A DNA stretch of 32,000 bases from Halomicronema hongdechloris C2206 (GTDB lineage: Bacteria; Cyanobacteriota; Cyanobacteriia; Phormidesmidales; Phormidesmidaceae). Every line of letters begins with the position of its first letter. Within the stretch, counting starts at the first letter, position 1. Where the stretch lies: positions 4,950,001 through 4,982,000 of the forward strand of contig NZ_CP021983.2 in assembly GCF_002075285.3 (NCBI RefSeq), read 5' to 3'. This document shows positions 3,539 through 21,650 of the stretch, piece by piece. Under the pieces are notes generated by a model, which saw nothing but the letters and a program-made list of their open reading frames with translations, did not search any database and was not told where the DNA came from. Both the position numbers and the translations under genes were made by a program.

Positions 3539-3656
3539 ACGTGAAAATCACTCACAGCAAGCCCTCCAGGGAGAAGAATTAGCACAAGATCGCTAACCCC
3601 TTGTGAAACTATTTAAGATTCCCTTTACCAATCAGTTCTCAGCAAGGCTACCTAAC

Positions 3657-6600
3657 ATGTTAGACACCCTACTGTTGATTCCCCACGGGCACTGCTATCT
3701 TTGGAAACCCAATCTAGTCGGATTACATGTGGTTTCAGATGCGCTGATTGGCATCGCCTACTACTCCATTCCCTTGACCTTGCTCTATTTTGTTCAGAAG
3801 CGCAAGGATGTTCCGTTTGACTGGATTTTCTTACTGTTTTCCGCGTTTATTGCGTTTTGCGGCACCACCCACTTAATGTCCATTTGGACACTGTGGCATC
3901 CGGCTTATTGGGTCTCGGGCACCATCAAAGCACTCACGGCAGCGATTTCGGTCTACACCGCGATTCAACTCATTCCGATTGTCCCCAAAGCGCTCGATTT
4001 GCCCAGTCCAGCCCAGCTAGAAGCGATCAACCATCAGCTTCAGCAGCACGTTGCTAAGCGTGAGCAGGCAGAACGACATCTGCGCCAGTTGTCTGCTCGC
4101 CTGAATCTGGCAGTGAAGTCTGCGGCTATCGGCATTTGGGATTGGGACATGACCCAAGACATCCTCACCTGGGATAAACGGATGTATGAGCTCTATGGCC
4201 TCATCCCCGAGTGTTTTACCCCTGCCTATGGAGCATGGTCGAGCTGTTTGCATCCCGACGATCGCAGGGCAGCAGAAATGGCTGCTCAGCAAGCCCTGCA
4301 AGGCGAGAAAGACTTTGACCAAGACTTTCGAGTGGTTCATCCCGATGGCAGCATCCACTACATCAAAGCCAATGCGCTGGTGCAGCGCGATCCCCACGGT
4401 GACCCTCAACGGATGATCGGGGTTAGCTATGACATTACTGATCGCAAGCAGGCTGAGCAACAACTCCAGCAACTCAATCAAGCGCTAGAAGCCAAAGTCG
4501 AAGAGCGCACCCGAGAACTGCAAGCCCTGGCCAGACGGGAGCAATTGAGTGCCAACATCGCCACTCAGATCCGATCATCGCTAGATTTACAGGTGATTCT
4601 GGAGACGGCGGTGCGGGAGATTCGATCGCTGCTACAGTGCGCTCGCGTGAATATCTGGCGATTTGACGCCGATGGGCAAACCATGGTCGTGGCCGAGTCC
4701 ACCGACTCCTCCCTGTCGCTGGTGGGGGAACGGGTCAACGACACCTGCCTGCAAGACTACACCGCACTTTATCGCCAGGGGCGGGTGCGCATCGTGCCGG
4801 ATATCTACACTACCGACATGTCAGCCTGTCACCGGGAGCTACTGATCCGCTCCCAGATACGCGCCAAAATCTTGGTGCCGCTGCTGTGTGGGGATGAGTT
4901 GTGGGGCTTGCTCCATGTCAGCGAGAGCCAACACCCCCGCGACTGGCAACCGGAAGAAGTGGAGCTGCTGCAGGCGTTATCGGTGCAACTGGGGATCGCC
5001 CTTCAACAGGCCACCATCCATCAGCAATTACAGGCGGAACTGAACGAGCGACAGCAAACGGAAGCTCGCCTGCGAGCCAGTGAACAACGTTATATCACCC
5101 TGGCAGCAGCGGTTCCCGTGGGGATTTATCGCACCGACGCGGCGGGTAACTGCCTCTACGTCAACGATCGCTTGGGTCAGATCACGGGGCTCGCCCCAGA
5201 AGCGACAATGGGACAGGGATGGCGGCAAGGACTGCACCCGGATGATCGGGACCGGGTCGTGACTGAATGGTATCAATCTGCCCAGGAAAATCGTCCCTTC
5301 CAGCTCGAATATCGGTTTCAACACCCTGACGGGACGGTGAGGTGGGTCTATGGACAATCCGTCGCCGAGTGGGATGCCGATGGGCAAGTGATTGGCTATG
5401 TCGGCACCATCACGGATATCAGCGAGAGAAAGCGGCTGGAAGCCGAACGCAAACAGGTCGAAGCCGAGCGCCTGCAAGCTAAGCAGACTCGTAAAGAGTT
5501 AACGTTACTGGAGCAGATTCTGGACATCATTCTCGCGGGCTATTGGGATTGGGATATTCCCGGCAATCAAGAATACCTTAGCCTTGGCTTCAAACAAATG
5601 TTTGGCTACGCCGATCACGAACTGCCCAACACCCCTGAAACCTGGCAAAATCTAATCTTTCCACAAGATTTACCCGGGGTATTGGAGTGTTTCAACCGCC
5701 ATGTCCAGAGCCGAGGGGAAGTGCCCTACGTCAACGAAGTCCGCTATCGCCATAAAGATGGATCGACGGTCTGGGTGATCTGCTCCAGTAAGGTGATTGA
5801 GTGGGATGAGGCGGGTAACCCGCTGCGGATGATTGGCTGTCACATTGATATTAGCGATCGCAAACGGGCAGAAGCCGCCCTGATTAGCAGTGAAGCCCGA
5901 CTACAATACCTGGTCTCCTCCAGCCCCGTCGTCATTTTTAGCTGCAAACCCAATGGCGACTATGGGGCCACCTTTATCAGCGAAAACGTCGAAGCGTTAT
6001 TGGGCTGGAATGCTCAGGATTTTCTGGCAGACTCTGAATTTTGGCTCAACCATCTCCATCCCGACGATGCTGAGCGGGTTCTGGCCGGGCTGGCAAATTT
6101 ATTCACCGGTGACTTTTATGCGCACGAGTACCGCCTCCGTAAAGGCGATGATACCTACTGTTGGTGCCTGGCCCAGTTACGGTTGATTCGCGATCAGGCC
6201 GGTAACCCCCTCGAGATGCTGGGATATTTGATTGATATTAGCGATCGCAAACACACCGAAGCAGCCCTGCGGGACAGCGAAGCCCGACTGCAACTGATTA
6301 CCGACTCTATTCCGGGCTGCATTTCCTACACGGATGCCTCCCAGCACTATCGGTTTGTCAACCACACCTATGAAGAGTGGTTTGGCTGTCGGAAGGAAGA
6401 TATCCTGGAGCGCAGCATTGCCGAGGTGCTTGGCGCTGAAGCGTACCAGCGTGCCCGACAGCATATTGAGCGTGTGCTGTCTGGCGAAACCGTGACCTAT
6501 GAAAACGAGTTGCCCTATCAGGGGAGACAACCCCGCTATGTCTCTGGGAAATTGGTGCCAGAGATTGACTCACAGGGCCGGGTTCACGGCTACTATGCGC

Positions 6601-8477
6601 TGATTACCGACATTAGCGATCTCAAACAGGCCGAAGCCGCACTCAAGGCCAGCCGGGCTTACTATCAGGGCATCGTCTCTGACCAGACAGAACTGATCTG
6701 CCGCTTCTTGCCCGACGGCATCCTCACCTTTGTCAACGATGCCTACTGCCAGTTTTTCCAGAAGTCGCCGGAAGACCTCTTGGGCCGTAGCTTTACCCCC
6801 CTCATACCTGCCGAGGACAAAGAGATTGCCTTACAAACCTTCAACAGCCTGTCCGTAGACAACCCGGTCGTCACCTGTGAACATCGCGTGATTGCGCCGG
6901 ATGGCTCCATCCGCTGGCAACAGTGGACCGATCGCGCCCTAGTTGACCCAGACGGCAACTTCATTGAATTCCAGGCAGTCGGTCGAGACATTACTGCCCT
7001 GAAAGAAGCAGAAGCCGACATCAAGCGCCATCTCACCGCGATTGAGGCTGCCATCGACGGCATCAGCATTTTGCGAGATGGCCATTATAGTTATCTGAAC
7101 CAGTCCCAGTTAACCCTATTCGGTTATTCCCAAGCCGAGGATCTGTTGGGCCAATCCTGGCAGGTGCTCTACCCCGCTCAGGAAGTTCGCCGGTTCCAAA
7201 AAGAGGTGCTGCCCCAGGTGAAGCAACACGGGTTCTGGCACGGTGAAGCCACAGGGAAACGACGGGACAACACCCTTTTCCCCGTGGAGGTATCGCTGAC
7301 CCTGACCCCTACCGGCGATATCATCCGAGTTTGTCGGGATATCAGCGATCGCAAGCAGGCAGAAGATCATCTCCGCCAGATGTCTGTTCGTTTGAATCTG
7401 GCGGTGAAGTCTGCGGCCATGGGCATCTGGGATTGGGATGTTACCCACAACATCCTCACCTGGGATCAACAAATGTATGAACTCTATGGCATTACCCCCG
7501 AGCAGTTTACCAATGTCTATGAAGCCTGGTCTAGTAGTGTCCATCCCGACGATCTCGCGGCGGCAGAAACGGCGGTTCAGCAAGCCCTGCGCGGTGAAAA
7601 AGACTTTGACCAAGACTTTCGAGTGATTCATCCCGATGGCACCATCCGCTTCATCAAAGCTAATGCCCTGGTGCAGCGCAATCGCCACGGTGACCCTGAA
7701 TGGATGATCGGGATTAACTATGACATTACCGCTCGCAAACGCACTGAAGCCCAAATCCAAGAGTATGCCACCCAACTAGAGTCCTCTAACCGAGAATTGG
7801 AAGCCTTTGCCTACTCGGTTTCCCATGACCTGCGGGCTCCTCTGCGGGCGATCGATGGCTTTAGCAAAGCCTTACTCGAAGATTACGGAGACACTTTCGA
7901 TGAAGAGGGCCAAGATTACTTCGATCGGATTCGCAAAAATGTCACCCGCATGGGCATGTTAATCGATGATTTGCTGAGCTTATCGCGGGTCTCTCGCTAC
8001 GAAATCCGGCATACCACGGTCAACCTCAGTACCCTGGCTCAAGAGCTGATGGCTGAATTGCAAGCATCGGAGCCAGAGCGGCCCGTCGAGGTTGGGATTG
8101 CCCCCGACGCGATCGTCTCCGCCGATGCCACCCTGATGCGGGTGGTCCTGACGAACCTGTTGCAAAATGCCTGGAAATTTACCAGCCACCATCCCACAGC
8201 CCGAATTGAATTTGGCATGATTTACCCAGACGGACAGCCGGTCTATTTTGTCCGAGACGATGGCGCTGGCTTTGATATGGCCTACTCCAACATGCTGTTT
8301 GGCGTCTTCCAACGATTGCATAATATCCATGAATTTCCCGGCACAGGAATTGGGTTAGCGACGGTTCAAAGAGCGATTCATCGCCATGGGGGACGCGTTT
8401 GGGCAGAGGCAACCGTCGAGCAGGGCGCAACCTTTTATTTCACCCTTCCCAGTACACCGCTCGAGCTAGGAGCATAG
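3657..8477 (+). CDS. Multi-sensor histidine kinase: ethylene-binding-domain-like 3-TM N-terminus, PAS, bilin-type (CBCR-like) GAF, seven further PAS/PAC, HisKA, HATPase_c
   Basis: The ORF is open from GTG 3603; I prefer ATG 3657 (MLDTLLLIPHGHCYLW). The N-terminus aligns by eye to Arabidopsis ETR1 helices 1-3: VVSDALIGIAYYSIPLTLLYFV, WIFLLFSAFIAFCGTTHLMSIWT and TIKALTAAISVYTA. The GAF has ..NDTCLQDY.. and ..DIYTTDMSACHRELL..ILVPLL..LWGLL. Repeated PAS/PAC ends read DI(S/T)(D/E)RK. The H-box is FAYSVSHDLRAPLRAI, and the N/G boxes are LLQNAWKF, DDGAGFD and GTGIGLATV. Confidence 0.93.
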   Translation: MLDTLLLIPHGHCYLWKPNLVGLHVVSDALIGIAYYSIPLTLLYFVQKRKDVPFDWIFLLFSAFIAFCGTTHLMSIWTLWHPAYWVSGTIKALTAAISVYTAIQLIPIVPKALDLPSPAQLEAINHQLQQHVAKREQAERHLRQLSARLNLAVKSAAIGIWDWDMTQDILTWDKRMYELYGLIPECFTPAYGAWSSCLHPDDRRAAEMAAQQALQGEKDFDQDFRVVHPDGSIHYIKANALVQRDPHGDPQRMIGVSYDITDRKQAEQQLQQLNQALEAKVEERTRELQALARREQLSANIATQIRSSLDLQVILETAVREIRSLLQCARVNIWRFDADGQTMVVAESTDSSLSLVGERVNDTCLQDYTALYRQGRVRIVPDIYTTDMSACHRELLIRSQIRAKILVPLLCGDELWGLLHVSESQHPRDWQPEEVELLQALSVQLGIALQQATIHQQLQAELNERQQTEARLRASEQRYITLAAAVPVGIYRTDAAGNCLYVNDRLGQITGLAPEATMGQGWRQGLHPDDRDRVVTEWYQSAQENRPFQLEYRFQHPDGTVRWVYGQSVAEWDADGQVIGYVGTITDISERKRLEAERKQVEAERLQAKQTRKELTLLEQILDIILAGYWDWDIPGNQEYLSLGFKQMFGYADHELPNTPETWQNLIFPQDLPGVLECFNRHVQSRGEVPYVNEVRYRHKDGSTVWVICSSKVIEWDEAGNPLRMIGCHIDISDRKRAEAALISSEARLQYLVSSSPVVIFSCKPNGDYGATFISENVEALLGWNAQDFLADSEFWLNHLHPDDAERVLAGLANLFTGDFYAHEYRLRKGDDTYCWCLAQLRLIRDQAGNPLEMLGYLIDISDRKHTEAALRDSEARLQLITDSIPGCISYTDASQHYRFVNHTYEEWFGCRKEDILERSIAEVLGAEAYQRARQHIERVLSGETVTYENELPYQGRQPRYVSGKLVPEIDSQGRVHGYYALITDISDLKQAEAALKASRAYYQGIVSDQTELICRFLPDGILTFVNDAYCQFFQKSPEDLLGRSFTPLIPAEDKEIALQTFNSLSVDNPVVTCEHRVIAPDGSIRWQQWTDRALVDPDGNFIEFQAVGRDITALKEAEADIKRHLTAIEAAIDGISILRDGHYSYLNQSQLTLFGYSQAEDLLGQSWQVLYPAQEVRRFQKEVLPQVKQHGFWHGEATGKRRDNTLFPVEVSLTLTPTGDIIRVCRDISDRKQAEDHLRQMSVRLNLAVKSAAMGIWDWDVTHNILTWDQQMYELYGITPEQFTNVYEAWSSSVHPDDLAAAETAVQQALRGEKDFDQDFRVIHPDGTIRFIKANALVQRNRHGDPEWMIGINYDITARKRTEAQIQEYATQLESSNRELEAFAYSVSHDLRAPLRAIDGFSKALLEDYGDTFDEEGQDYFDRIRKNVTRMGMLIDDLLSLSRVSRYEIRHTTVNLSTLAQELMAELQASEPERPVEVGIAPDAIVSADATLMRVVLTNLLQNAWKFTSHHPTARIEFGMIYPDGQPVYFVRDDGAGFDMAYSNMLFGVFQRLHNIHEFPGTGIGLATVQRAIHRHGGRVWAEATVEQGATFYFTLPSTPLELGA

Positions 8478-8905: not shown

Positions 8906-10996
8906 ATGAGTGACTCACTCCGTGTTCTGATCGTGGAAGATGCAGAGGACGATGCGCTGCTAGTGTTGCGAGAATTACGTCGTGGTAATTTCGATCTGGT
9001 TTGGGAACGGGTGCAAACAGCTGAGTCGCTCCGCACCCTGCTGACGACCCGGGCCTGGGACGTGATCATTTCAGATTACCGCTTACCCGGATTTGACGCC
9101 CCTGCGGCCCTGGAAATTGTCAAACAAAGCCAACTCGACATTCCCTTCATTATGGTTTCGGGCACCATTGGTGAGCGCTCGGCGGTGGAAATCATGAAGG
9201 CCGGTGCCCACGATTACCTGATGAAGGACAACTTAGTCCGATTACCCGAGGCGGTGCGGCGCGAATTGCGGGATGCTCAAATTCGGGCAGAGCGCAAACA
9301 AGCTGAAGTTGCCCTGAGACGGCAACTGGCGGCGATCGAGGCGGCGATCGATGGCATCGGTATTCTGCAAGGAGACACGTATCTCTATCTCAACCAAGCC
9401 TATCTCAACCTCTTTGGCTACGACCACGCTGAAGAGCTGGTGGGCAAAACCTGGAGACTGTGTTATTCCCAAGTGGAGATAGACCGGTTTGAGCAGGAAG
9501 TCTTTCCAGTGCTGGATCGCGATCGCGCCTGGCAGGGAGAAGCGATCGCCACTCGCAAAGATGGCTCTACCTTTGCCCAGGGCGTGTCCCTCACCCTCAC
9601 CGAGGATGGATTATTGATTTCTGTCTGTCGTGATATTAGCGACCTCAAACAGGCCCAGGAGATGCTGATCTATATCGCGTTGCACGATCCCCTGACCGGG
9701 TTACCGAACCGAAAACTATTGATAGAGCGACTTGAATTGGCCATTAACCGAGCCAGGCGTCTTGAGAACTACCATTATGCGGTCTTATTTCTGGATCTAG
9801 ATCGATTCAAAGTGATCAATGATAGTTTGGGGCACTCGGTTGGCGACCAGCTCCTGATCGCCATTGCCCAACGACTAAAAGTGCATGTAAGAGACATTGA
9901 CTTAGTGGCTCGACTGGGGGGTGACGAGTTTGTGATTCTGCTAGAGGAGATCAGTGGTCCTGAAGACGTGATTCAAATTTCCGAACGTATCCTGGCAGAT
10001 TTTCAAACGCCGTTCATCATCCATGACTATGAAATCTTTACCAGTTTCAGTATTGGTATTGTTCTGGGAACCCAGGATTACCATCAGACTTCCGATTTAA
10101 TGCGCGATGCCGACATTGCCATGTATCGAGCTAAGGCACAACAGAACAACTCGTATAAGTTTTTCGATGCAGCGATGCATACTCAAGCGCTGAACCGCCT
10201 CACCCTCGAAACGGATCTGCGCAAAGCGCTCAACCAACAAGAATTTGTGGTTTACTATCAACCCATTTTTGATTTGTTCAATCATCGACTGTTTGGATTT
10301 GAGGCTTTAGTTCGCTGGCAACACCCGACGCGTGGGTTCATTTCTCCAGATGAATTTATTTCTATTGCCGAAGAGACGGGGTTCATTGTACCCCTGGATA
10401 ATTGGGTGCTTTATAACGCTTGCCAGCAAATAGCCAGTTGGGAAAACCAATTTGCCAATGGGTCCTCCTTCAAAATCAGTATCAACCTTTCTGCACAAGA
10501 TCTTCGCAAGGTGAATTTGATTCAGGATGTTGATGACATATTGGCTGATACTGGATTAGCGGGTCACTCGCTCACCTTAGAGATTACCGAGAGTCTGTTG
10601 ATTGAGAACATCGATCAGACCATTGATTTATTAGTTCAGTTGGCGTCGAGAAACATTCAGATCAGCATTGATGACTTTGGCACAGGGTATTCCTCCCTGG
10701 GTTATCTACACCGTTTTCCAGTGAATAACCTGAAAATCGATCGCTCTTTTGTGGATCAAATTCAATCAGAAAGTCGCGAATATCATGTCGTCGATACGAT
10801 TATTGCCCTCGGTCAGCACCTCGGTCTATCGGTGATTGCAGAAGGCGTTGAAACAACTCAACAGCTTGAATGGCTACAACAACTCCGTTGCGAGTTTGGG
10901 CAAGGCTATCTATTTTCTAAACCCCTAGCAGCAGCTGAAATTGAAAGACGTTATCTCGCCAGACTAGAGGAAACGTATAACTCAAATGAGGGATAA
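8906..10996 (+). CDS. Response regulator with REC-PAS-GGDEF-EAL architecture (c-di-GMP synthesis/hydrolysis)
   Basis: REC: VLIVEDAEDD, DVIISDYRLPG, DYLMK. The PAS domain spans aa 141-251. GGDEF: RLGGDEFVILL, with RDID five residues upstream (an RxxD I-site). EAL: FEALVRW, EITES, DDFGTGYSSL, KIDRSF, EGVET, QGYLFSKP. The start lies 2 nt after the upstream stop. Confidence 0.93.
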   Translation: MSDSLRVLIVEDAEDDALLVLRELRRGNFDLVWERVQTAESLRTLLTTRAWDVIISDYRLPGFDAPAALEIVKQSQLDIPFIMVSGTIGERSAVEIMKAGAHDYLMKDNLVRLPEAVRRELRDAQIRAERKQAEVALRRQLAAIEAAIDGIGILQGDTYLYLNQAYLNLFGYDHAEELVGKTWRLCYSQVEIDRFEQEVFPVLDRDRAWQGEAIATRKDGSTFAQGVSLTLTEDGLLISVCRDISDLKQAQEMLIYIALHDPLTGLPNRKLLIERLELAINRARRLENYHYAVLFLDLDRFKVINDSLGHSVGDQLLIAIAQRLKVHVRDIDLVARLGGDEFVILLEEISGPEDVIQISERILADFQTPFIIHDYEIFTSFSIGIVLGTQDYHQTSDLMRDADIAMYRAKAQQNNSYKFFDAAMHTQALNRLTLETDLRKALNQQEFVVYYQPIFDLFNHRLFGFEALVRWQHPTRGFISPDEFISIAEETGFIVPLDNWVLYNACQQIASWENQFANGSSFKISINLSAQDLRKVNLIQDVDDILADTGLAGHSLTLEITESLLIENIDQTIDLLVQLASRNIQISIDDFGTGYSSLGYLHRFPVNNLKIDRSFVDQIQSESREYHVVDTIIALGQHLGLSVIAEGVETTQQLEWLQQLRCEFGQGYLFSKPLAAAEIERRYLARLEETYNSNEG

Positions 10997-11062
10997 GAGG
11001 GGCGTATCCACGAGGTAGGGGAGTACAAATGTCACCCGGCATTATCCAGTCCGCTCCTCGAT

Positions 11063-11222
11063 GTCATTCCCGTACTCGCTTAGCGTGGCCGGAGGCCGTA
11101 AAACGGGAATCCACTGACCGATAGGTTGCCGCTCTGGATTCCCGCCGGCGCGGGAATGACTCCTCACTTCTCACTTCTCCCTCCTCCCTTCTCCCCTGGA
11201 CTCCCGCCGGCGCGGGAATGAC
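11063..11222. repeat. Cluster of three hairpin-repeat units of the GTCATTCCCG..CGGGAAT family plus a pyrimidine-rich tract
   Basis: Stems are ATTCCCGT (11066..11073) / ACGGGAAT (11103..11110), ATTCCCGC (11138..11145) / GCGGGAAT (11150..11157), and a third unit GGACTCCCGCCGGCGCGGGAATGAC (11198..11222). TCCTCACTTCTCACTTCTCCCTCCTCCC lies between the second and third units. Confidence 0.85.
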
Positions 11223-11407
11223 ACCGGGATCATTTTTGTTCGCGAGCCCCTTAATTCTCACACCTGTCATGTCGTCTGTCTTTCAGACAAGCTGTGCCCT
11301 AGCATCAGCCATGCCCCTTGGGCTATACGCGTCAGCGGCTCCAGAGGAACAACGAAGCGGATGAGCAACGCCACACCCAGGCTTTGCAATCTACTGATTT
11401 TCGATAT

Positions 11408-11501
11408 TACCTTGGTAGGGATTGGGATAGTCCAGGCGGTCAAGAATACCTTAGTCCTGGCTGCTGTCCAGTCAATGAGCTACAGAGGGGATTTGTCAAC
11501 T
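11408..11501. repeat. Conserved ~95-nt non-coding element, copy 2 (partner 3439..3538)
   Basis: See copy 1: same block order and orientation. Confidence 0.7.
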
Positions 11502-11513
11502 GGTTGGAAGTAG

Positions 11514-11650
11514 GTAGGGTGGGCAAAATCAGGATAGATAACCCTCGCTGGTGCCTGTAAGCTTTGTTTGCCCACCAATTTTTTCAGCGGTGGGCATTGT
11601 AGCTTGAGTGCGGGTTAGCAAAGATTTCGGACAAGAAATGCCCACCCTAC
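11514..11650. repeat. MITE-like structured element: two tandem long hairpins with GGTGGGCA(A/T)(A/T) stems, bounded by a 12-bp inverted repeat
   Basis: GTAGGGTGGGCA (11514..11525) is the reverse complement of TGCCCACCCTAC (11639..11650). Hairpin 1 pairs GGTGGGCAAA (11518..11527) with TTTGCCCACC (11567..11576). Hairpin 2 pairs GGTGGGCATT (11589..11598) with AATGCCCACC (11637..11646). Confidence 0.7.
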
Positions 11651-11887
11651 GAACTGCTCATCAACAGTGAGCCAACGGTCTTTATCTGGCAATCTCAACA
11701 GCTCGTCGCCGGCCGCGCCATCATTGCTGGGGAGCAGAGACTAGGCGCAGTCAGTATTGGCCTCTCAACCGCTCCGCTACAGCAGAAAGTTGCTAGGGTC
11801 CGCAACCAAGGCATCGTCATCGCGCTGATTGCAGGGGGGTTAGGGGCGAGTATTGCCGTAGTACTCAGCCGCTCGATCACAACCCCA

Positions 11888-12982
11888 TTGCAGGCTCTCG
11901 TGGTGGCCACCCGCAAGATTGCCCAAGGGGATCTAAATCAGCAGGTGCCGATTCAGAGCCATGATGAGCTGGCCGTCTTGGCCCAGTCCTTTAACGAGAT
12001 GACCAGCCGCTTGCAGCAAACCCTATCCCTACTCCAAGCCCACAAAGACGAGTTAGAGCAGCGGGTACAGGAACGCACCCAAGCGCTGTCCGAGGCCATT
12101 CAGCACCTGCAGCAGACGCAGACCCAATTGGTTCAAAGCGAGAAAATGTCTAGTCTGGGCCAATTAGTCGCTGGTGTCGCCCACGAAATCAACAATCCAG
12201 CTAGTTTCATCCACGGCAATCTCACCTACGCCTCTACCTACATCCAAGATCTGCTGGATATTATCACCCTTTACCAACAGCACTACCCAAATCCCCCAGC
12301 CGGCCTGCAAGAAGCCATTGATGCAGTTGATTTGGCGTTTATTCAAAGTGATTTGCCGAAGTTACTGCAATCTATGCAGGTGGGCTCTGATCGCATCAAT
12401 GAGATTGTCCGCTCCCTGCGAACGTTTTCCCGCCTGGAAGAGGGGGACTTTAAGCCTGCTGACATCCACGACGGGATTGACAGCACGCTGATGATTTTGA
12501 AGCATCGCCTGAAGATGGCCACTGGCAACGGCATCCAGGTGGTCAAACACTACGCTCCCCTAGATCCTATCGATTGCCGCCTGGGGCAACTGAATCAGGT
12601 GTTCATGAATATTCTCACCAATGCCATCGACGCCTTGCAGGACCAAGGGGCGGCGCCGTCGAGCCCGTCTCAGCAGCCTCCCACCATTGAGATTCGCACC
12701 CGATCCCTGTCTCCCGACTGGATCGCTATTCATATTTTCAACAACGGCCCCAGTATCGACACCGAGATTCACTCCAAGCTGTTCGATCCTTTCTTCACCA
12801 CGAAATCGGTTGGGCAAGGGACCGGCCTGGGGCTCTCCATTAGCTACCAAATCGTGACTGAGCATCACCGGGGGCGCCTCTATTGCCATTCCAAGGCTAA
12901 TTGGGGAACCGAATTCATCCTCGAGTTGCCCACCCATCATCCCGACGAGACCATGCCGGACTTGGCGGCAGCAGATCACTGA
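11888..12982 (+). CDS. Histidine kinase (HAMP remnant-HisKA-HATPase_c) lacking its N-terminal sensor/TM1 region; possibly a pseudogene
   Basis: H-box LVAGVAHEINNPASF; the N/G boxes are as in copy A. The frame is open from 11603 and encodes a sensor-domain end plus TM2 (..GAVSIGLSTAPLQQKVARVRNQGIVIALIAGGLGASIAVVLSRSITTPLQ). There is no ATG/GTG/TTG before TTG 11888, which lies inside the HAMP region. Confidence 0.65.
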   Translation: MQALVVATRKIAQGDLNQQVPIQSHDELAVLAQSFNEMTSRLQQTLSLLQAHKDELEQRVQERTQALSEAIQHLQQTQTQLVQSEKMSSLGQLVAGVAHEINNPASFIHGNLTYASTYIQDLLDIITLYQQHYPNPPAGLQEAIDAVDLAFIQSDLPKLLQSMQVGSDRINEIVRSLRTFSRLEEGDFKPADIHDGIDSTLMILKHRLKMATGNGIQVVKHYAPLDPIDCRLGQLNQVFMNILTNAIDALQDQGAAPSSPSQQPPTIEIRTRSLSPDWIAIHIFNNGPSIDTEIHSKLFDPFFTTKSVGQGTGLGLSISYQIVTEHHRGRLYCHSKANWGTEFILELPTHHPDETMPDLAAADH

Positions 12983-13088: not shown

Positions 13089-15422
13089 CTAGGAATGCAG
13101 CCGCTGCACATGATAGGTGGGAAAGGTGCCGTAATGCTTGGCCCAAGGCATCCGTCCCACATAACTGCAGGTAAACGATTGCTGGCCCTCGGAGGTGGCG
13201 ATGGCGGCAAAGGCCTGGCTGGCATAGACTTTGCCCGGCGGTGTGATCGGCTCGATGCGGGCGGCATGGTTAACATGGGTACCCATGTAGTTGACCTGAT
13301 TGGTAATGGGGTCAACATTGCGCAACACCGGCCCGGCATGGAGAGCGATGCGAATGGTGAGATCGGCAGGTAACCCTTGTTGCTGCCAGTCGATGGACTG
13401 CATCAGATCGCCGAGATCGAGGGCGAAGAGGCCGGCCTCCTGCACCGTGGGAAACACATAGTAGAGGGCATCTCCCCAGGTATTCTTGGTCAGGGGCTGA
13501 TACCGGGGCTGATTGGATAAGGCCGCTACCGCCTCCAGAAAATGCCGCATGAAGATGCACAGCTGGTCTTCCAGCAGTTGGGTGTACTGCACCACATCGG
13601 CAAACAGCAGGGCGCGAATCTCCCGCTGCTGTTGTTCTAGAGCCGCCGTAGGCGTGGACCTCGGCTCAGACTCGGTGTCATACCCTGCTGCCGCCAGTAA
13701 AGCAGCACTGTCAATGATCTCCACCTGGTGGCTCCACTGCTGCCAGTAGGCCACCGTGCTGGCGGTGCCGCCGGGACCATCGCCGGGCTGACCATTCCAG
13801 ACGGCCAAGGGCACTAAATCGGTGTAGAGTTGCTCGGCCCGGATTTTAGCCAGCCCATGCAACAAGCGGTTGGAATACTCGTAGGAGACATCGTCTGCCT
13901 GGGGTTTGCAGTCGGAGGCGACCACCACCTCTCGGGCTTGGGATAAGACCCGGTCGAAGCGGGCCACCCAATCCCCTGCCGTCGCCGTGCTTACCGAGTC
14001 TTGAATGAACTGGTCCCGGTTATAGGGCAGCACGATATTGCACTCTCCCCCCAGCTCCAGCAGGGCTTCCAGGAACAAAATATCGCTGCCACAGGCGGCC
14101 GAGGCATAGCCCACCCGCCCGTTCAGCTGTTGCAGTCGGGTATGAATGGCGTCGTACACGGAGTCCTCCAGCACTGGCGGCAACCGTGGCTGGGGTCGAT
14201 TGGCGGCATCCATGCGATGGCCACAGAAGACGATCACCCGGGGCATCTGAAACCACTCTCGCAGGGGGTCTAGGCCCTGGCCCAGGTGCTGCATCAACAG
14301 GGCCGCATTGCGATAGCTGGAACCCAGATCGCCGAATCGTCCCTGGCCCACCTGAACCGCCTGAGTGTAGTAGGCAGCGGCTTGGTCATAGCGGCCCAGT
14401 ACTAATTCGGCCTCCCCTAGGGTGGCTAAGATCCAGTAGGTGTCCTGGCCGGTCTTGGTGGCTTGCTCTAGGGCCTGTCGAGCGGTTTCGGCCACGGCGG
14501 TGGCCAGCTGGCGGGCCTGGCCGCGGTTCCCTTGGAGTAGGCTCAGGGTGGCAGCGTTGATGCCGGGCCAGAGGCTACCACTGCGGCGATAGGCTTCTAG
14601 ATAGCGGTCTGCGGCCAGCTTTAAGTGATGCGATCGCATCTGGTCAGGCCCTGCCTGGCGCCAGAGGTCCTTGTGGGTGCGGGCCAGCAAGCTTAGGGTT
14701 TCATCGTCATCCTGCCCTGCCGCCATCAGTTGACCCAACACCTCATTAGCGGCATGGGTGGCGCCGCTGCGGGCCAGGGCCAGGGCCAATAACTGCTGCA
14801 ACCGCAAATGCTGAGGCCACTGCTTCAGACCATCCGCCAGCACATCATAGGCCATTAGGGTTTCCCCCAACTGCAGCATCATTTCCCCCAAAGAGCAGTG
14901 TAGATCGGGGGTGCGGGGCCGCAGGGTGACAATTTCCCGTCGCAGCGCCAGCAGTGGGGCCAACTGCCGCGGCATGGCCCCAGCCCCGATACGCAGAGTC
15001 GCCGTGGCAGCCTCAGCGGTCCCCAACTTGATGCGAGGGGGCGCCACCGGTTGCGCCTCAATCCGATAGCCCAGGGCCACGGCCGTCTTGAGATTGTCGA
15101 GGTAGACCTGTAATTGCTGTTCTTGAACGGCTTCCGGTAGCTGCTCGAAAGGACAGAGATAGGGATGAGTGCGCTCGGCGGCATTGAGCCGAGTGCCATA
15201 GCGCCAACCTAGCCCGAGTAATGCTTGGGCCCAATGGTCATGACTGTTTTCAGCCAACCGCTCTGCCAGATATAAGTACTCCGCCGTCAGCGTTGCCTGA
15301 GACGTATCGATGGGCTGTGGTTGGTACACGGGTTGTTCTTGTCCCCTGCAGCGTTTACCCGAGCGTTGAGGGTCTCCCTCGCTTTTCCTCCATTGTGGGG
15401 TGACAACGGCAGAAGCATCCAC
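13089..15422 (-). CDS. Multidomain signalling protein: RyR domain, TPR / TRAF-binding-like helical repeat region, SLOG-like Rossmann domain, class III adenylate/guanylate cyclase domain
   Basis: RyR-like: AENSHDHWAQALLGLGWRYGTRLNAAERTHPYLCPFEQLPEAVQEQ..ALGYRI. Helical repeat: ETLSLLARTHKDLW..YLEAYRRSGSLWPGINAATL. SLOG-like: VIVFCGHRMD..GYASAACGSDILFLEALLELGGECNIVLPY..LAVWNGQPGDGPGGTA. Cyclase: LLFADVVQYTQL, TWGDALYYVF, IRIALHAGPV, GTHVNHAARIE. Confidence 0.88.
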   Translation of the reverse strand: MDASAVVTPQWRKSEGDPQRSGKRCRGQEQPVYQPQPIDTSQATLTAEYLYLAERLAENSHDHWAQALLGLGWRYGTRLNAAERTHPYLCPFEQLPEAVQEQQLQVYLDNLKTAVALGYRIEAQPVAPPRIKLGTAEAATATLRIGAGAMPRQLAPLLALRREIVTLRPRTPDLHCSLGEMMLQLGETLMAYDVLADGLKQWPQHLRLQQLLALALARSGATHAANEVLGQLMAAGQDDDETLSLLARTHKDLWRQAGPDQMRSHHLKLAADRYLEAYRRSGSLWPGINAATLSLLQGNRGQARQLATAVAETARQALEQATKTGQDTYWILATLGEAELVLGRYDQAAAYYTQAVQVGQGRFGDLGSSYRNAALLMQHLGQGLDPLREWFQMPRVIVFCGHRMDAANRPQPRLPPVLEDSVYDAIHTRLQQLNGRVGYASAACGSDILFLEALLELGGECNIVLPYNRDQFIQDSVSTATAGDWVARFDRVLSQAREVVVASDCKPQADDVSYEYSNRLLHGLAKIRAEQLYTDLVPLAVWNGQPGDGPGGTASTVAYWQQWSHQVEIIDSAALLAAAGYDTESEPRSTPTAALEQQQREIRALLFADVVQYTQLLEDQLCIFMRHFLEAVAALSNQPRYQPLTKNTWGDALYYVFPTVQEAGLFALDLGDLMQSIDWQQQGLPADLTIRIALHAGPVLRNVDPITNQVNYMGTHVNHAARIEPITPPGKVYASQAFAAIATSEGQQSFTCSYVGRMPWAKHYGTFPTYHVQRLHS

Positions 15423-20003: not shown

Positions 20004-20079
20004 GTTCGGAGCCGGGTACTCGGCCTCAACCTAGGTGCCTTTTACAATAGAACTACCCCTGGCTCAAACGGAGTTGTCT

Positions 20080-20832
20080 ATGGTTGACCAGCTTGCCATC
20101 AGCGAAGAGGTTGCATTCCCAGACGCCAGCCAACTCGTCACCGAGGATGACACTCCGGTGGATAATTTTGCCTCTGCTAAACAACAACGGCTCTTAGTGA
20201 GCTCTCTCTACAGCGCCCTATTAGGACAAGTTTTCCTGGCCGAAGCCAACGTCGGCATCTATCACATCTTTAGCCAACCGCCGATTGTGCCGGATGTCTT
20301 CGTCAGCTTCAACGTTCAGGTTCCCCAGGATTGGTGGGAAAAGCAAAACCGCTGTTACCTGGTGTGGAACTTCGGCAAACCTCCGGAGATTGTCATCGAA
20401 GTCGTCTCCAACCAAGTCGGCAATGAGCTCACCGATAAGTTCGCCACCTACGAGCACATGCGGGTCAGCTACTACGCAGTTTACGACCCCAGTTTGCAGC
20501 TGAGCGAGACTCCCTTGCGCCTGTTTGAACTGCGAGGCATGCACTACACCGAAATGACAGAACCCTGGCTGGAACAGGTCGGCCTGGGTCTGACGACCTG
20601 GCAGGGAGACTTTGAAGGCCGACAAGATACCTGGCTGCGCTGGTGTAATGCCGAGGGGGCCATGTTGCTAACGGGGGATGAGCAAGCAGCCCAAGCGCGA
20701 CAGCAGGCCGAGCAAGAGCGCCAGCGGGCGGAGCAGGAACGGCAACGGGCGGAGCAAGAGCGCCAGCGGGCCGATCGCTTAGCAGACCTTCTCAGAGCCC
20801 AGGGCATTGATCCGGATCAGTTGCCGCAATAG
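20080..20832 (+). CDS. Uma2 (DUF820) family putative endonuclease with C-terminal AEQERQR x3 repeat
   Basis: ..PDVFVSF.., GKPPEIVIEVVSN and YEHMRVSYYAVYDP match the PD-(D/E)xK-like Uma2 pattern. GGAG lies 7 nt upstream of ATG 20080. The ORF is open from 20035. Confidence 0.85.
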   Translation: MVDQLAISEEVAFPDASQLVTEDDTPVDNFASAKQQRLLVSSLYSALLGQVFLAEANVGIYHIFSQPPIVPDVFVSFNVQVPQDWWEKQNRCYLVWNFGKPPEIVIEVVSNQVGNELTDKFATYEHMRVSYYAVYDPSLQLSETPLRLFELRGMHYTEMTEPWLEQVGLGLTTWQGDFEGRQDTWLRWCNAEGAMLLTGDEQAAQARQQAEQERQRAEQERQRAEQERQRADRLADLLRAQGIDPDQLPQ

Positions 20833-20984: not shown

Positions 20985-21650
20985 CTACGCCAAAGACTGA
21001 CTCCAGTGCCGCACGGAGCGCATCACCTGGTTTTCGCTTTGAGATTGGCGCTGCTCTAGAAAGCCATTCAAGTCAGCCGCGGTTACCTGGGGGAAGGCCA
21101 AACTCACCGCTGATGCTGCATACCCGGTTGGCGTCAGCTGGTAGATCACCAAGCCCTGCCGCTTGCTGTAGCGCCACACCTCTGGTACTTCCAGCGCTGC
21201 GTAGATGTGCAGTCGTTGAGTTGAGGGACTGGTAATACCGACTGCAATCACCAAATCAGGAGGCAGCTTCTCGGGAATCACCGGATCGAGCCCTTCCAGC
21301 TGAGGCGCGTGTTGAATATAGAACCCCGTATCGGGCTCTGCTCCCTGCTGTAAATCCGGACGGTTCAGGGTCATTGAGCCCACATTAAGCACCTCTAGCC
21401 CCAGAACTTCCGTCAAGGTGGTGACAATCTGTCCTAGCAGGCGATTGATAATTTCATGCAGCTTAGACGGCATCTTCAGAGTCAGAACCCCCTGGTTATA
21501 GGCGATGCGAGTCGCTCGATGATCGCCTAGATCTGCCAGCATGGCCCGATAGGTCTGCCAACTGATATTCGACAGCACAACCGTTTGGGTCAACTGTCCG
21601 TCAAAATTATCTAGGTCTAGCTCGCTGATCTGGGTAGATATCAACACCAC
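20985..21650 (-). CDS. Uma2 (DUF820) family putative endonuclease
   Basis: ISWQTYRAML, RIAYNQGVLTLKMPSKLHE, AEPDTGFYI, PPDLVIAVGITS and YAALEVPEVWRY. GTG start. Confidence 0.82.
   Translation of the reverse strand: MVLISTQISELDLDNFDGQLTQTVVLSNISWQTYRAMLADLGDHRATRIAYNQGVLTLKMPSKLHEIINRLLGQIVTTLTEVLGLEVLNVGSMTLNRPDLQQGAEPDTGFYIQHAPQLEGLDPVIPEKLPPDLVIAVGITSPSTQRLHIYAALEVPEVWRYSKRQGLVIYQLTPTGYAASAVSLAFPQVTAADLNGFLEQRQSQSENQVMRSVRHWSQSLA

Follow-up and report, generated by a model that had tools for sequence, protein, structure and literature searches.

Gene and domain anatomy of XM38_047160

The protein that forms the subject of this analysis, in which three candidate sensory modules precede a class III nucleotidyl cyclase domain, is encoded on the minus strand of a 32-kb stretch of DNA from Halomicronema hongdechloris C2206 (the window, to which all positions given without a locus name refer). 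The list of open reading frames (ORFs) compiled for the window places it at 13089..15422 (−) with a GTG start and 777 residues, exactly as claimed in the first-pass annotation of this DNA, and the translated product proved to be 100% identical to the database protein XM38_047160, for which the annotated length is 746 residues. An in-frame GTG at 15329 (−), corresponding to residue 32 of the ORF, reads gtg tac caa cca cag and gives an N-terminus of MYQPQPIDTS, the consensus for homologue N-termini being MxYxPxPIDTS. Because the homologue N-termini match, and because the public database protein likewise contains 746 residues, this codon is judged from the sequence to be the most likely real start, so that the earlier ORF limits require correction and the most likely coding sequence extends over 13089..15329 (−; 746 residues plus stop). 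Residue numbers throughout are those of the 777-residue ORF, unless the 746-residue model is stated.

Pfam matches, structural models compared by Foldseek and a census of conserved residues together confirmed with high confidence a four-domain anatomy consisting of an RyR domain, a TRAF-binding-like region of tetratricopeptide repeats (TPRs), a SLOG-fold domain and a class III cyclase domain. All four had been named in the first-pass annotation: each set of module coordinates proposed there falls within the domain limits now established, and every motif quoted is present. A full-length model of the 746-residue protein (pLDDT 84.6, pTM 0.78) contained disordered linkers only at the RyR/TPR and SLOG/cyclase junctions. 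The first of these occupies 14967..15053 (−), residues 124–152 (pLDDT <50 for 93–121 of the 746-residue model), and the second 13632..13667 (−), residues 586–597 (pLDDT <50 for 555–566 of the same model).

The N-terminal module (15057..15326 (−), residues 33–122) is a single-repeat RyR domain of the R12 type, recognised by the Pfam model PF02026 (E = 7e-24; 84.3 bits against a gathering score of 27.4). Phage proteins with PF02026 RyR domains bind the isomers of cyclic ADP-ribose (cADPR) known as 2'cADPR and 3'cADPR (May 2026 preprint, PMC13232231). Their founding member RyDEP (mycobacteriophage DyoEdafos gp78), which with its single RyR repeat forms a homodimer, is a glycosidase with a catalytic dyad of H75 and D117, in which W78 stacks on the adenine and H100 binds the phosphates; most of the RyDEP homologues tested are non-catalytic sponges (PMC13232231). 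When XM38_047160 was aligned to gp78, residues H61, W64 and H86 fell gap-free and at the same spacing upon H75, W78 and H100, and Q103 occupied the position of the catalytic D117. Among some 104 RyR-bearing homologues the three contact positions are strongly conserved (His in 101, Trp in 101 and His in 98, respectively), the D117-equivalent position being occupied by Asp in 54, Lys in 23, Arg in 14 and Gln in nine. With Gln103 in place of Asp, binding without cleavage is therefore to be expected of the RyR domain of XM38_047160, the residues of which suggest a binder of a signal rather than a hydrolase.

Beyond the first linker lies an all-helical region of TPR-S / MAP3K_TRAF_bd-type repeats (14250..14963 (−), residues 154–391; helices at 123–360 in the full-length model). 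The Pfam model TPR-S ('Tetratricopeptide Repeats-Sensor') matched residues 192–294 (E = 1e-21; 77.4 bits against a gathering score of 27.6), and an overlapping match to MAP3K_TRAF_bd covered residues 201–347 (E = 3e-9; 36.8 bits against a gathering score of 24.1). Two motifs of this region, LARTHKDLW and GINAAT, were invariant in the homologue columns.

The third domain (13686..14249 (−), residues 392–579) had been described at first pass as a Rossmann-like segment resembling the SLOG superfamily. No Pfam, NCBIfam or PADLOC model matched residues ~392–579. An AlphaFold2 model of this middle segment based on 47 sequences was nonetheless of high confidence (pLDDT 93.3, pTM 0.90), with an alternating strand-helix topology, and the significant matches returned by Foldseek from the PDB mostly belonged to the SLOG superfamily (eight of the top ten), thereby upholding the original call. 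The best match was YpsA (2nx2; E = 1.5e-6, TM 0.63/0.70, probability 1.0), followed by DprA (3uqz, 5mll, 4ljk), ShosA (8zva) and Moco-carrier protein (2iz7, 6y01), with LOG (5zbl, 5its) and TM1055 lower in the list.

The motifs of XM38_047160 in this domain (GH402..D405..R409..PRLP; G445-S-D447; F450; E452; W542; G551-G552-T553) lie in segments conserved throughout the homologues, namely GH.D..R..PRFP after strand 1, AAcGsDILFLEa..lGGe..vLP and VW.g.pGDGpGGTa. Residues G445-S-D447, F450 and E452 were invariant and G551-G552-T553 nearly so, the invariant G445-x-D447 being the counterpart of the GxD/E signature reported for the SLOG superfamily (PMC6459960), and G551-G552-T553 that of the Gly-rich loop at its predicted ligand site. 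Two distant stand-alone relatives of the domain gave sub-threshold Pfam matches to YpsA (7.7e-4) and DprA (0.19), and a profile of the domain recovered 11,216 representative proteins at E ≤ 1e-3. The predicted structure and these motifs support its assignment to a divergent SLOG clade for which there is no curated model.

Since the fold matches include LOG and related SLOG members, which are enzymes, it may be asked whether the domain is itself catalytic, processing a nucleotide in the manner of the LOG phosphoribohydrolases, for instance by altering or breaking down the TIR signal or the cyclase product, and thus making XM38_047160 a two-enzyme protein. An active site could be formed by E452 together with a polar loop behind strand 1 (GH..D..R..PRFP), which is unusual and almost invariant in this clade. 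However, PGGTAS stands in place of the LOG catalytic motif PGGxGTxxE, the best structural match is YpsA rather than LOG, and in the characterised TIR systems SLOG acts as a sensor; an enzymatic SLOG domain is accordingly considered improbable.

The C-terminal domain (13092..13631 (−), residues 598–777) is a class III nucleotidyl cyclase catalytic domain, with a match to the Pfam model PF00211 (Guanylate_cyc) over residues 598–759 (E = 4e-10; 40.1 bits against a gathering score of 21.9) and Foldseek superpositions upon RhGC, CyaB, Rv1900c and CyaC (5oyh, 3r5g, 1ybt and 1wc1; TMt 0.72–0.81, rmsd ~3.2 Å). Alignments to 5oyh and 3mr7 located the metal-binding residues D609 and D651, the phosphate-binding R691 and the transition-state residues N718 and R722. 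D609, D651, R691 and R722 were invariant in 120 of 120 homologues, and at the transition-state position N718 (13269–13271) Asn was found in 68 and Ser in 47 with the other catalytic residues unchanged. The domain thus looks, from its sequence, catalytically competent.

The canonical base-specifying pairs of such enzymes are Lys/Asp for ATP in adenylate cyclases and a Glu/Cys-type pair for GTP in guanylate cyclases. In a profile alignment to RhGC, an invariant N647 stood at the Lys/Glu position, with K646 one residue earlier, and N711 at the Asp/Cys position, where the family carries Asn in 77, Ser in 21 and Asp in 11; the 3mr7 alignment instead opens a gap that pairs K646 with the specificity Lys. 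The Asn647/Asn711 pair fits neither canonical combination, and since the specificity pair is Asn/Asn the substrate is not predictable from the sequence. XM38_047160 is, in other words, a class III cyclase by fold and by catalytic residues, and not by specificity residues. The alignments and the census of 120 homologues bear out what had been claimed of this domain at the outset, that both metal Asp residues and the transition-state Asn and Arg are retained while the base-specifying positions are atypical.

A domain of this kind need not signal: it might be a weak or dead module for nucleotide binding or dimerisation, or a terminal effector that kills by exhausting nucleoside triphosphates (NTPs) with no reader involved. 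Its Pfam score is low, with some family members falling below detection, inactive cyclase domains are reported from other conflict systems, the transition-state Asn is replaced by Ser in the proportion of homologues given above, and no reader gene is linked. The invariance of both metal Asp residues and both Arg residues, with the Asn retained in XM38_047160, nevertheless argues against a dead domain, and NTP depletion is compatible with the explanation preferred below; as a rival to it, a non-signalling cyclase is held to have little likelihood.

Distribution of the family and its linkage to TIR genes

More than 900 homologues of XM38_047160 were recovered, and a scan of one genome per species found TPR-S–SLOG–cyclase relatives, with or without RyR, in at least 559 species genomes distributed over about ten phyla. 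The groups represented include Cyanobacteriota, Acidobacteriota, Chloroflexota, Desulfobacterota and Armatimonadota, and additionally Poribacteria, Planctomycetota, Verrucomicrobiota, Elusimicrobiota and Bipolaricaulia. The architecture, described at first pass as unusual, is therefore not rare. Among the 146 best SLOG-profile representatives, 84 have the TPR-S–SLOG–cyclase arrangement and approximately 31 add an N-terminal RyR domain, which makes RyR an optional addition to a core of three domains. Rare fusions of the core include an nSTAND1 NTPase, a second cyclase plus NB-ARC, trypsin, CHAT, GAF, a receiver domain and, weakly, TIR.

The relatives are annotated as 'TRAFs-binding domain-containing protein'. 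The literature searched yielded no experimental characterisation of the family, such as would have refuted the first-pass interpretation, and no description of the TPR-S–SLOG–cyclase architecture, although it may have been listed in silico in earlier comparative-genomics work.

Neighbouring genes were clustered across 80 related genome loci, of which 55 had at least 2.5 kb of flanking sequence on both sides. The clusters contained recurrent adjacent genes with products that start in TIR motifs, confirmed by Pfam as TIR_2, TIR and ThsB_TIR. A TIR ORF is carried by 40 of the 80 loci, and a TIR gene lies within 2.5 kb in 24 of the 55 well-flanked loci, on the same strand and within 500 nt in 14 of those 24. 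The density of TIR ORFs was 3.85 per 10 kb at 0–500 nt compared with 0.05–0.27 per 10 kb beyond 2 kb, that is, 15–75 times higher. Linkage to TIR genes at the level of the family is a finding in which confidence is high.

The partners assigned by Pfam differ from group to group: in Desulfobacterota and other Deltaproteobacteria they are TIR-TPR proteins, in Acidobacteriota TIR-Sel1 and TIR-DUF4062, in Chloroflexota TIR proteins with a membrane domain, and in Okeania, Dapis and Microcoleaceae triple-TIR-WD40 and triple-TIR-CHASE2. TIR-WD40 partners also occur in Calothrix, Tolypothrix, Bipolaricaulia and Poribacteria, with the TIR match in the first 140 residues and canonical motifs. Several cyanobacterial members have TIR as the very next gene (L003, L055, L012, L029 and L034). 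The neighbouring TIR domains keep the Glu of an S.[WY]C..E-type motif, the site of the catalytic Glu in NADase TIRs. Clusters other than TIR and STAND/WD40 comprised housekeeping genes or antisense ORF artefacts.

The state of the RyR domain varied with this linkage. All 22 of the TIR-adjacent members scored in genome loci possess the full His-Trp-His-Asp set, and none of the seven non-Asp members with adequate flanks has a TIR gene nearby (Fisher p = 0.009, without correction for phylogeny). XM38_047160 itself falls in the non-Asp, TIR-less sub-clade.

Some of the loci display further arrangements. In two from Acidobacteriota (L051 9935–16731 and L048 3579–8141) a TIR/DUF4062 gene comes after the core gene, and next to it lies an nSTAND1-TPR NTPase gene, the start of which overlaps the TIR stop; the arrangement is echoed in the fusion protein P0184, where nSTAND1 is joined directly to TPR-S-SLOG-cyclase. 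Upstream of the Calothrix NIES-2098 homologue (L003 340–6346) lie EAD8-trypsin and EAD8 genes and a gene for a 1408-residue protein, with TIR-WD40 immediately downstream; EAD genes of this kind are typical of effector-associated-domain conflict systems (Kaur et al. 2020).

Stand-alone SLOG relatives were found in five contexts of mixed character, of which only one is clearly TIR-linked, namely a ThsB_TIR-caspase-SLOG operon from Acidobacteriota (L006 1193–3169). This operon encodes a ThsB-type TIR protein, a caspase-like Peptidase_C14 and P0149, a SLOG protein that stands alone and is a distant relative of the middle domain of XM38_047160; but for its additional SLOG gene it looks like type IV Thoeris. 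In a second context (L089 1608–3988) a 201-residue gene, the stand-alone SLOG relative P0146 and a patatin gene form one apparent operon, in which the candidate effector listed as 'SLOG Patatin' in a Thoeris preprint (10.64898/2025.12.03.692087) is split into separate genes. In a third, from Streptomyces (L005 5546–7486), a 161-residue stand-alone SLOG relative follows a 481-residue HTH_31 protein beside prophage tail and lysis genes. The two others comprised a SLOG gene near an S8 peptidase and one uninformative case.

Candidate mechanism and genomic context

The reading that we favour, with a probability put at a little over one half (about 0.55), is that XM38_047160 is a soluble, probably homodimeric class III cyclase most likely activated by a TIR-made nucleotide of the ADP-ribose (ADPR) type bound by its N-terminal modules. 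It is the best supported because all three N-terminal modules have independently been implicated, in other systems, in the response to ADPR-type nucleotides made by TIR enzymes, and because the family is linked to TIR genes. Both the TIR linkage of the relatives and the RyDEP-like residues of the RyR domain lend weight to the original suggestion that a nucleotide sensor drives a nucleotide cyclase, with the qualification that sensing is probably a function of three modules and not of SLOG alone.

According to this scheme a TIR-domain enzyme would make an NAD+-derived, ADPR-type nucleotide, which would bind SLOG and/or TPR-S and/or RyR. Class III cyclases need a dimer, and RyDEP, likewise with one RyR repeat, is a homodimer; binding of the signal may alter the geometry of a dimer or oligomer such that two cyclase domains form active sites and a cyclic nucleotide is produced. 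That product would act on a reader encoded elsewhere, or its synthesis would drain the NTP pool. Hydrolysis of the signal by the RyR domain may also provide the His-Trp-His-Asp relatives with a built-in off-switch, much as self-limiting CARF effectors degrade their own activator. The Halomicronema gene is an orphan, and its product would either work with a TIR protein encoded elsewhere or represent a domesticated sensor of endogenous NAD+/ADPR-like metabolites that feeds cyclic-nucleotide signalling.

A more ambitious version would make the family an undescribed type of Thoeris operating as a two-tier relay, in which a TIR-made cyclic-ADPR-type signal is read by up to three sensors and converted into a second, possibly non-canonical cyclic nucleotide, and in which the RyR domain of the His-Trp-His-Asp members cleaves the first signal as a timer. 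We advance this only tentatively and regard it as possible but doubtful; were it true, the RyR domain would have served ancestrally as a receptor for cADPR in hosts, and not only in the counter-defence of phages.

Within the window, the XM38_047160 gene is monocistronic, convergent with the gene for a HAMP histidine kinase and divergent from an aminotransferase gene. Further neighbours encode a large PAS/GAF kinase, a REC-PAS-GGDEF-EAL protein, a receiver protein, LipA, a DctP-type binding protein and two Uma2 proteins, and the other ORFs are unrelated. Annotation of the neighbours and of all window ORFs agrees with the earlier remark that no effector gene is adjacent; nor does any gene in the 32-kb window encode a protein binding cyclic nucleoside monophosphates (cNMPs). 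Rfam and tRNA scans of the window gave no match, and scans for promoters and terminators did not rise above chance level.

Several features of the surrounding sequence were recorded in passing. At 3603–8477 (+) a 1624-residue sensor histidine kinase combines an N-terminal ethylene-receptor-like ETR1_N domain with GAF, many PAS and HisKA/HATPase domains. The histidine kinase ORF at 11888–12982, in the region 10997–12982 (+), has a HAMP match beginning at profile position 12 at residue 3, and the 890 nt upstream contain no ORF longer than 80 residues; from its sequence, the gene looks 5'-truncated or otherwise disrupted. The GC content of the window drops to 0.44 in 10001–11000. The two Uma2-family (putative endonuclease) genes, at 20035–20832 (+) and 20985–21650 (−), are convergent, and a DDE_3 transposase fragment lies at 1882–2508 (−).

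A number of observations weigh against activation by a TIR-made signal, or at least against the strength with which it may be asserted for this gene. The 32-kb window contains no TIR ORF, so that the adjacent TIR gene characteristic of Thoeris is lacking here. TIR genes lie within 2.5 kb in 17 of the 19 well-flanked loci from Acidobacteriota and in five of the 11 from other phyla, but in only two of the 25 from cyanobacteria. Moreover, the TIR counts are dominated by loci from Acidobacteriota, which are mutually related, so that the counts are not independent events; the strongest argument is therefore not the raw count but the adjacency, in different phyla, of TIR families with different partner domains. 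No gene for a cNMP-binding protein or other reader recurs near the family, either in the neighbour clusters of the 80 loci or in the window, and the flanking genes are mostly housekeeping genes rather than defence islands. NCBIfam and PADLOC searches of the protein gave nothing specific beyond the Pfam domains, the only PADLOC match being a weak and generic one to TPRs and none being to a defence model. Finally, phmmer and profile searches of PDB sequences with the middle domain gave matches at chance level only and found no solved SLOG protein, for which reason the SLOG assignment rests on the predicted fold and on motifs.

A rival reading is that of a housekeeping signal-transduction cyclase, which would synthesise cAMP or cGMP when prompted by an endogenous metabolite, be it NAD+/ADPR status or some other nucleotide, or by a protein partner that binds the TPRs, with no immune role and with the TIR-linked relatives representing a derived or separate use of the scaffold. 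The gene stands alone among two-component, c-di-GMP signalling and metabolic genes, most cyanobacterial orthologues have no TIR neighbour, specific PADLOC matches are wanting, variants fused to GAF and receiver domains exist, and the sub-clade that includes XM38_047160, which has lost the RyR Asp, is also the one in which TIR neighbours are absent. Against such a role, however, all three N-terminal modules come from families so far tied to TIR/ADPR signalling, the RyR contact residues and SLOG motifs are still conserved in the orphan clade, and TIR is the very next gene in the cyanobacterial members named above. We consequently consider a purely housekeeping function unlikely, although by no means negligible.

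If activation by a TIR-made nucleotide is the correct reading, synthesis of a second messenger would be a new TIR/Thoeris output, the known effectors being ones that destroy NAD+, membranes, proteins or nucleotides, and the family would offer a bacterial example of the conversion of one nucleotide signal into another. It would also place RyR-type domains with the ADPR-contacting residues of RyDEP in host proteins genetically linked to TIR enzymes, so that the long-standing question of whether RyR-type domains read cyclic ADP-ribose directly could be addressed in a tractable bacterial model. The size of the family and its inclusion of orphans such as XM38_047160 offer natural contrasts, both between members with and without a TIR neighbour and between those with Asp and those with Lys, Arg or Gln at the RyR catalytic position.

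Comparison with known systems

Pycsar and other known defence systems were considered and set aside, there being no relevant PADLOC model match and no cNMP-binding effector either adjacent to the gene or recurring in related loci. Among class III cyclases with non-canonical specificity residues, M. tuberculosis Rv1900c, which carries Asn/Asp at the specificity positions, has the same catalytic fold with its metal and transition-state residues and is among the best structural matches of the XM38_047160 cyclase (TMt 0.78–0.81). By way of contrast, the regulatory modules of XM38_047160 are unrelated to those of Rv1900c and of the Pycsar pyrimidine cyclases.

The likeness to RyDEP is one of family and of contact residues: both proteins belong to the same Pfam family, and the H..W and HP motifs of XM38_047160 are spaced identically to the ADPR-contacting H75, W78 and H100. 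RyDEP, however, is a small stand-alone viral anti-defence protein, whereas here RyR forms the N-terminus of a multidomain host cyclase, and its catalytic D117 is replaced by Gln in XM38_047160, though not in the 54 family members that have Asp.

With respect to the TPR region, XM38_047160 matches above cut-off the model of the TRAF-binding TPR region of the metazoan ASK kinases (MAP3K5/6/15), components of a signalosome that Aravind and colleagues have derived from bacterial conflict systems. It differs in being bacterial, in having no kinase or PH domain and in covering the MAP3K_TRAF_bd model only at positions 169–318 of 371.

The closest parallels are with Thoeris, types I–XI of which are defined in the December 2025 preprint cited above (10.64898/2025.12.03.692087). 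In type I Thoeris the 3'cADPR made by TIR is bound by the SLOG domain of ThsA, which activates SIR2; in type VIII, according to the preprint, the effector ThsI (TPR plus CMP-hydrolase) is activated by canonical cADPR. The effectors that it tested or listed further include SLOG-patatin, SLOG-4TM and TIR-SLOG, no nucleotide cyclase appearing among the effectors in the text and tables examined.

XM38_047160 resembles the type I system (SIR2-SLOG ThsA plus ThsB) in that its SLOG domain shares a polypeptide with an enzymatic output domain, and its relatives adjoin TIR genes, a subset of them with matches to the ThsB_TIR model. The differences are that the output is a class III cyclase and not a SIR2 NADase, that two further candidate sensors (RyR and TPR-S) are present, that its SLOG domain is closer to YpsA and DprA, with no ThsA chain in the top 50 fold matches, and that this window has no adjacent TIR gene. 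Like type VIII ThsI, it carries a TPR module of the kind predicted by Aravind and colleagues for TIR signalling, labelled TPR-S by Pfam in XM38_047160; the output of ThsI, however, is a nucleotide hydrolase, and no SLOG, RyR or cyclase domain is reported for it. The best reading of these comparisons is that the XM38_047160 family is probably Thoeris-effector-like, combining sensor, enzymatic output and TIR partner, and distinguished by its cyclase output and by its three candidate sensors.

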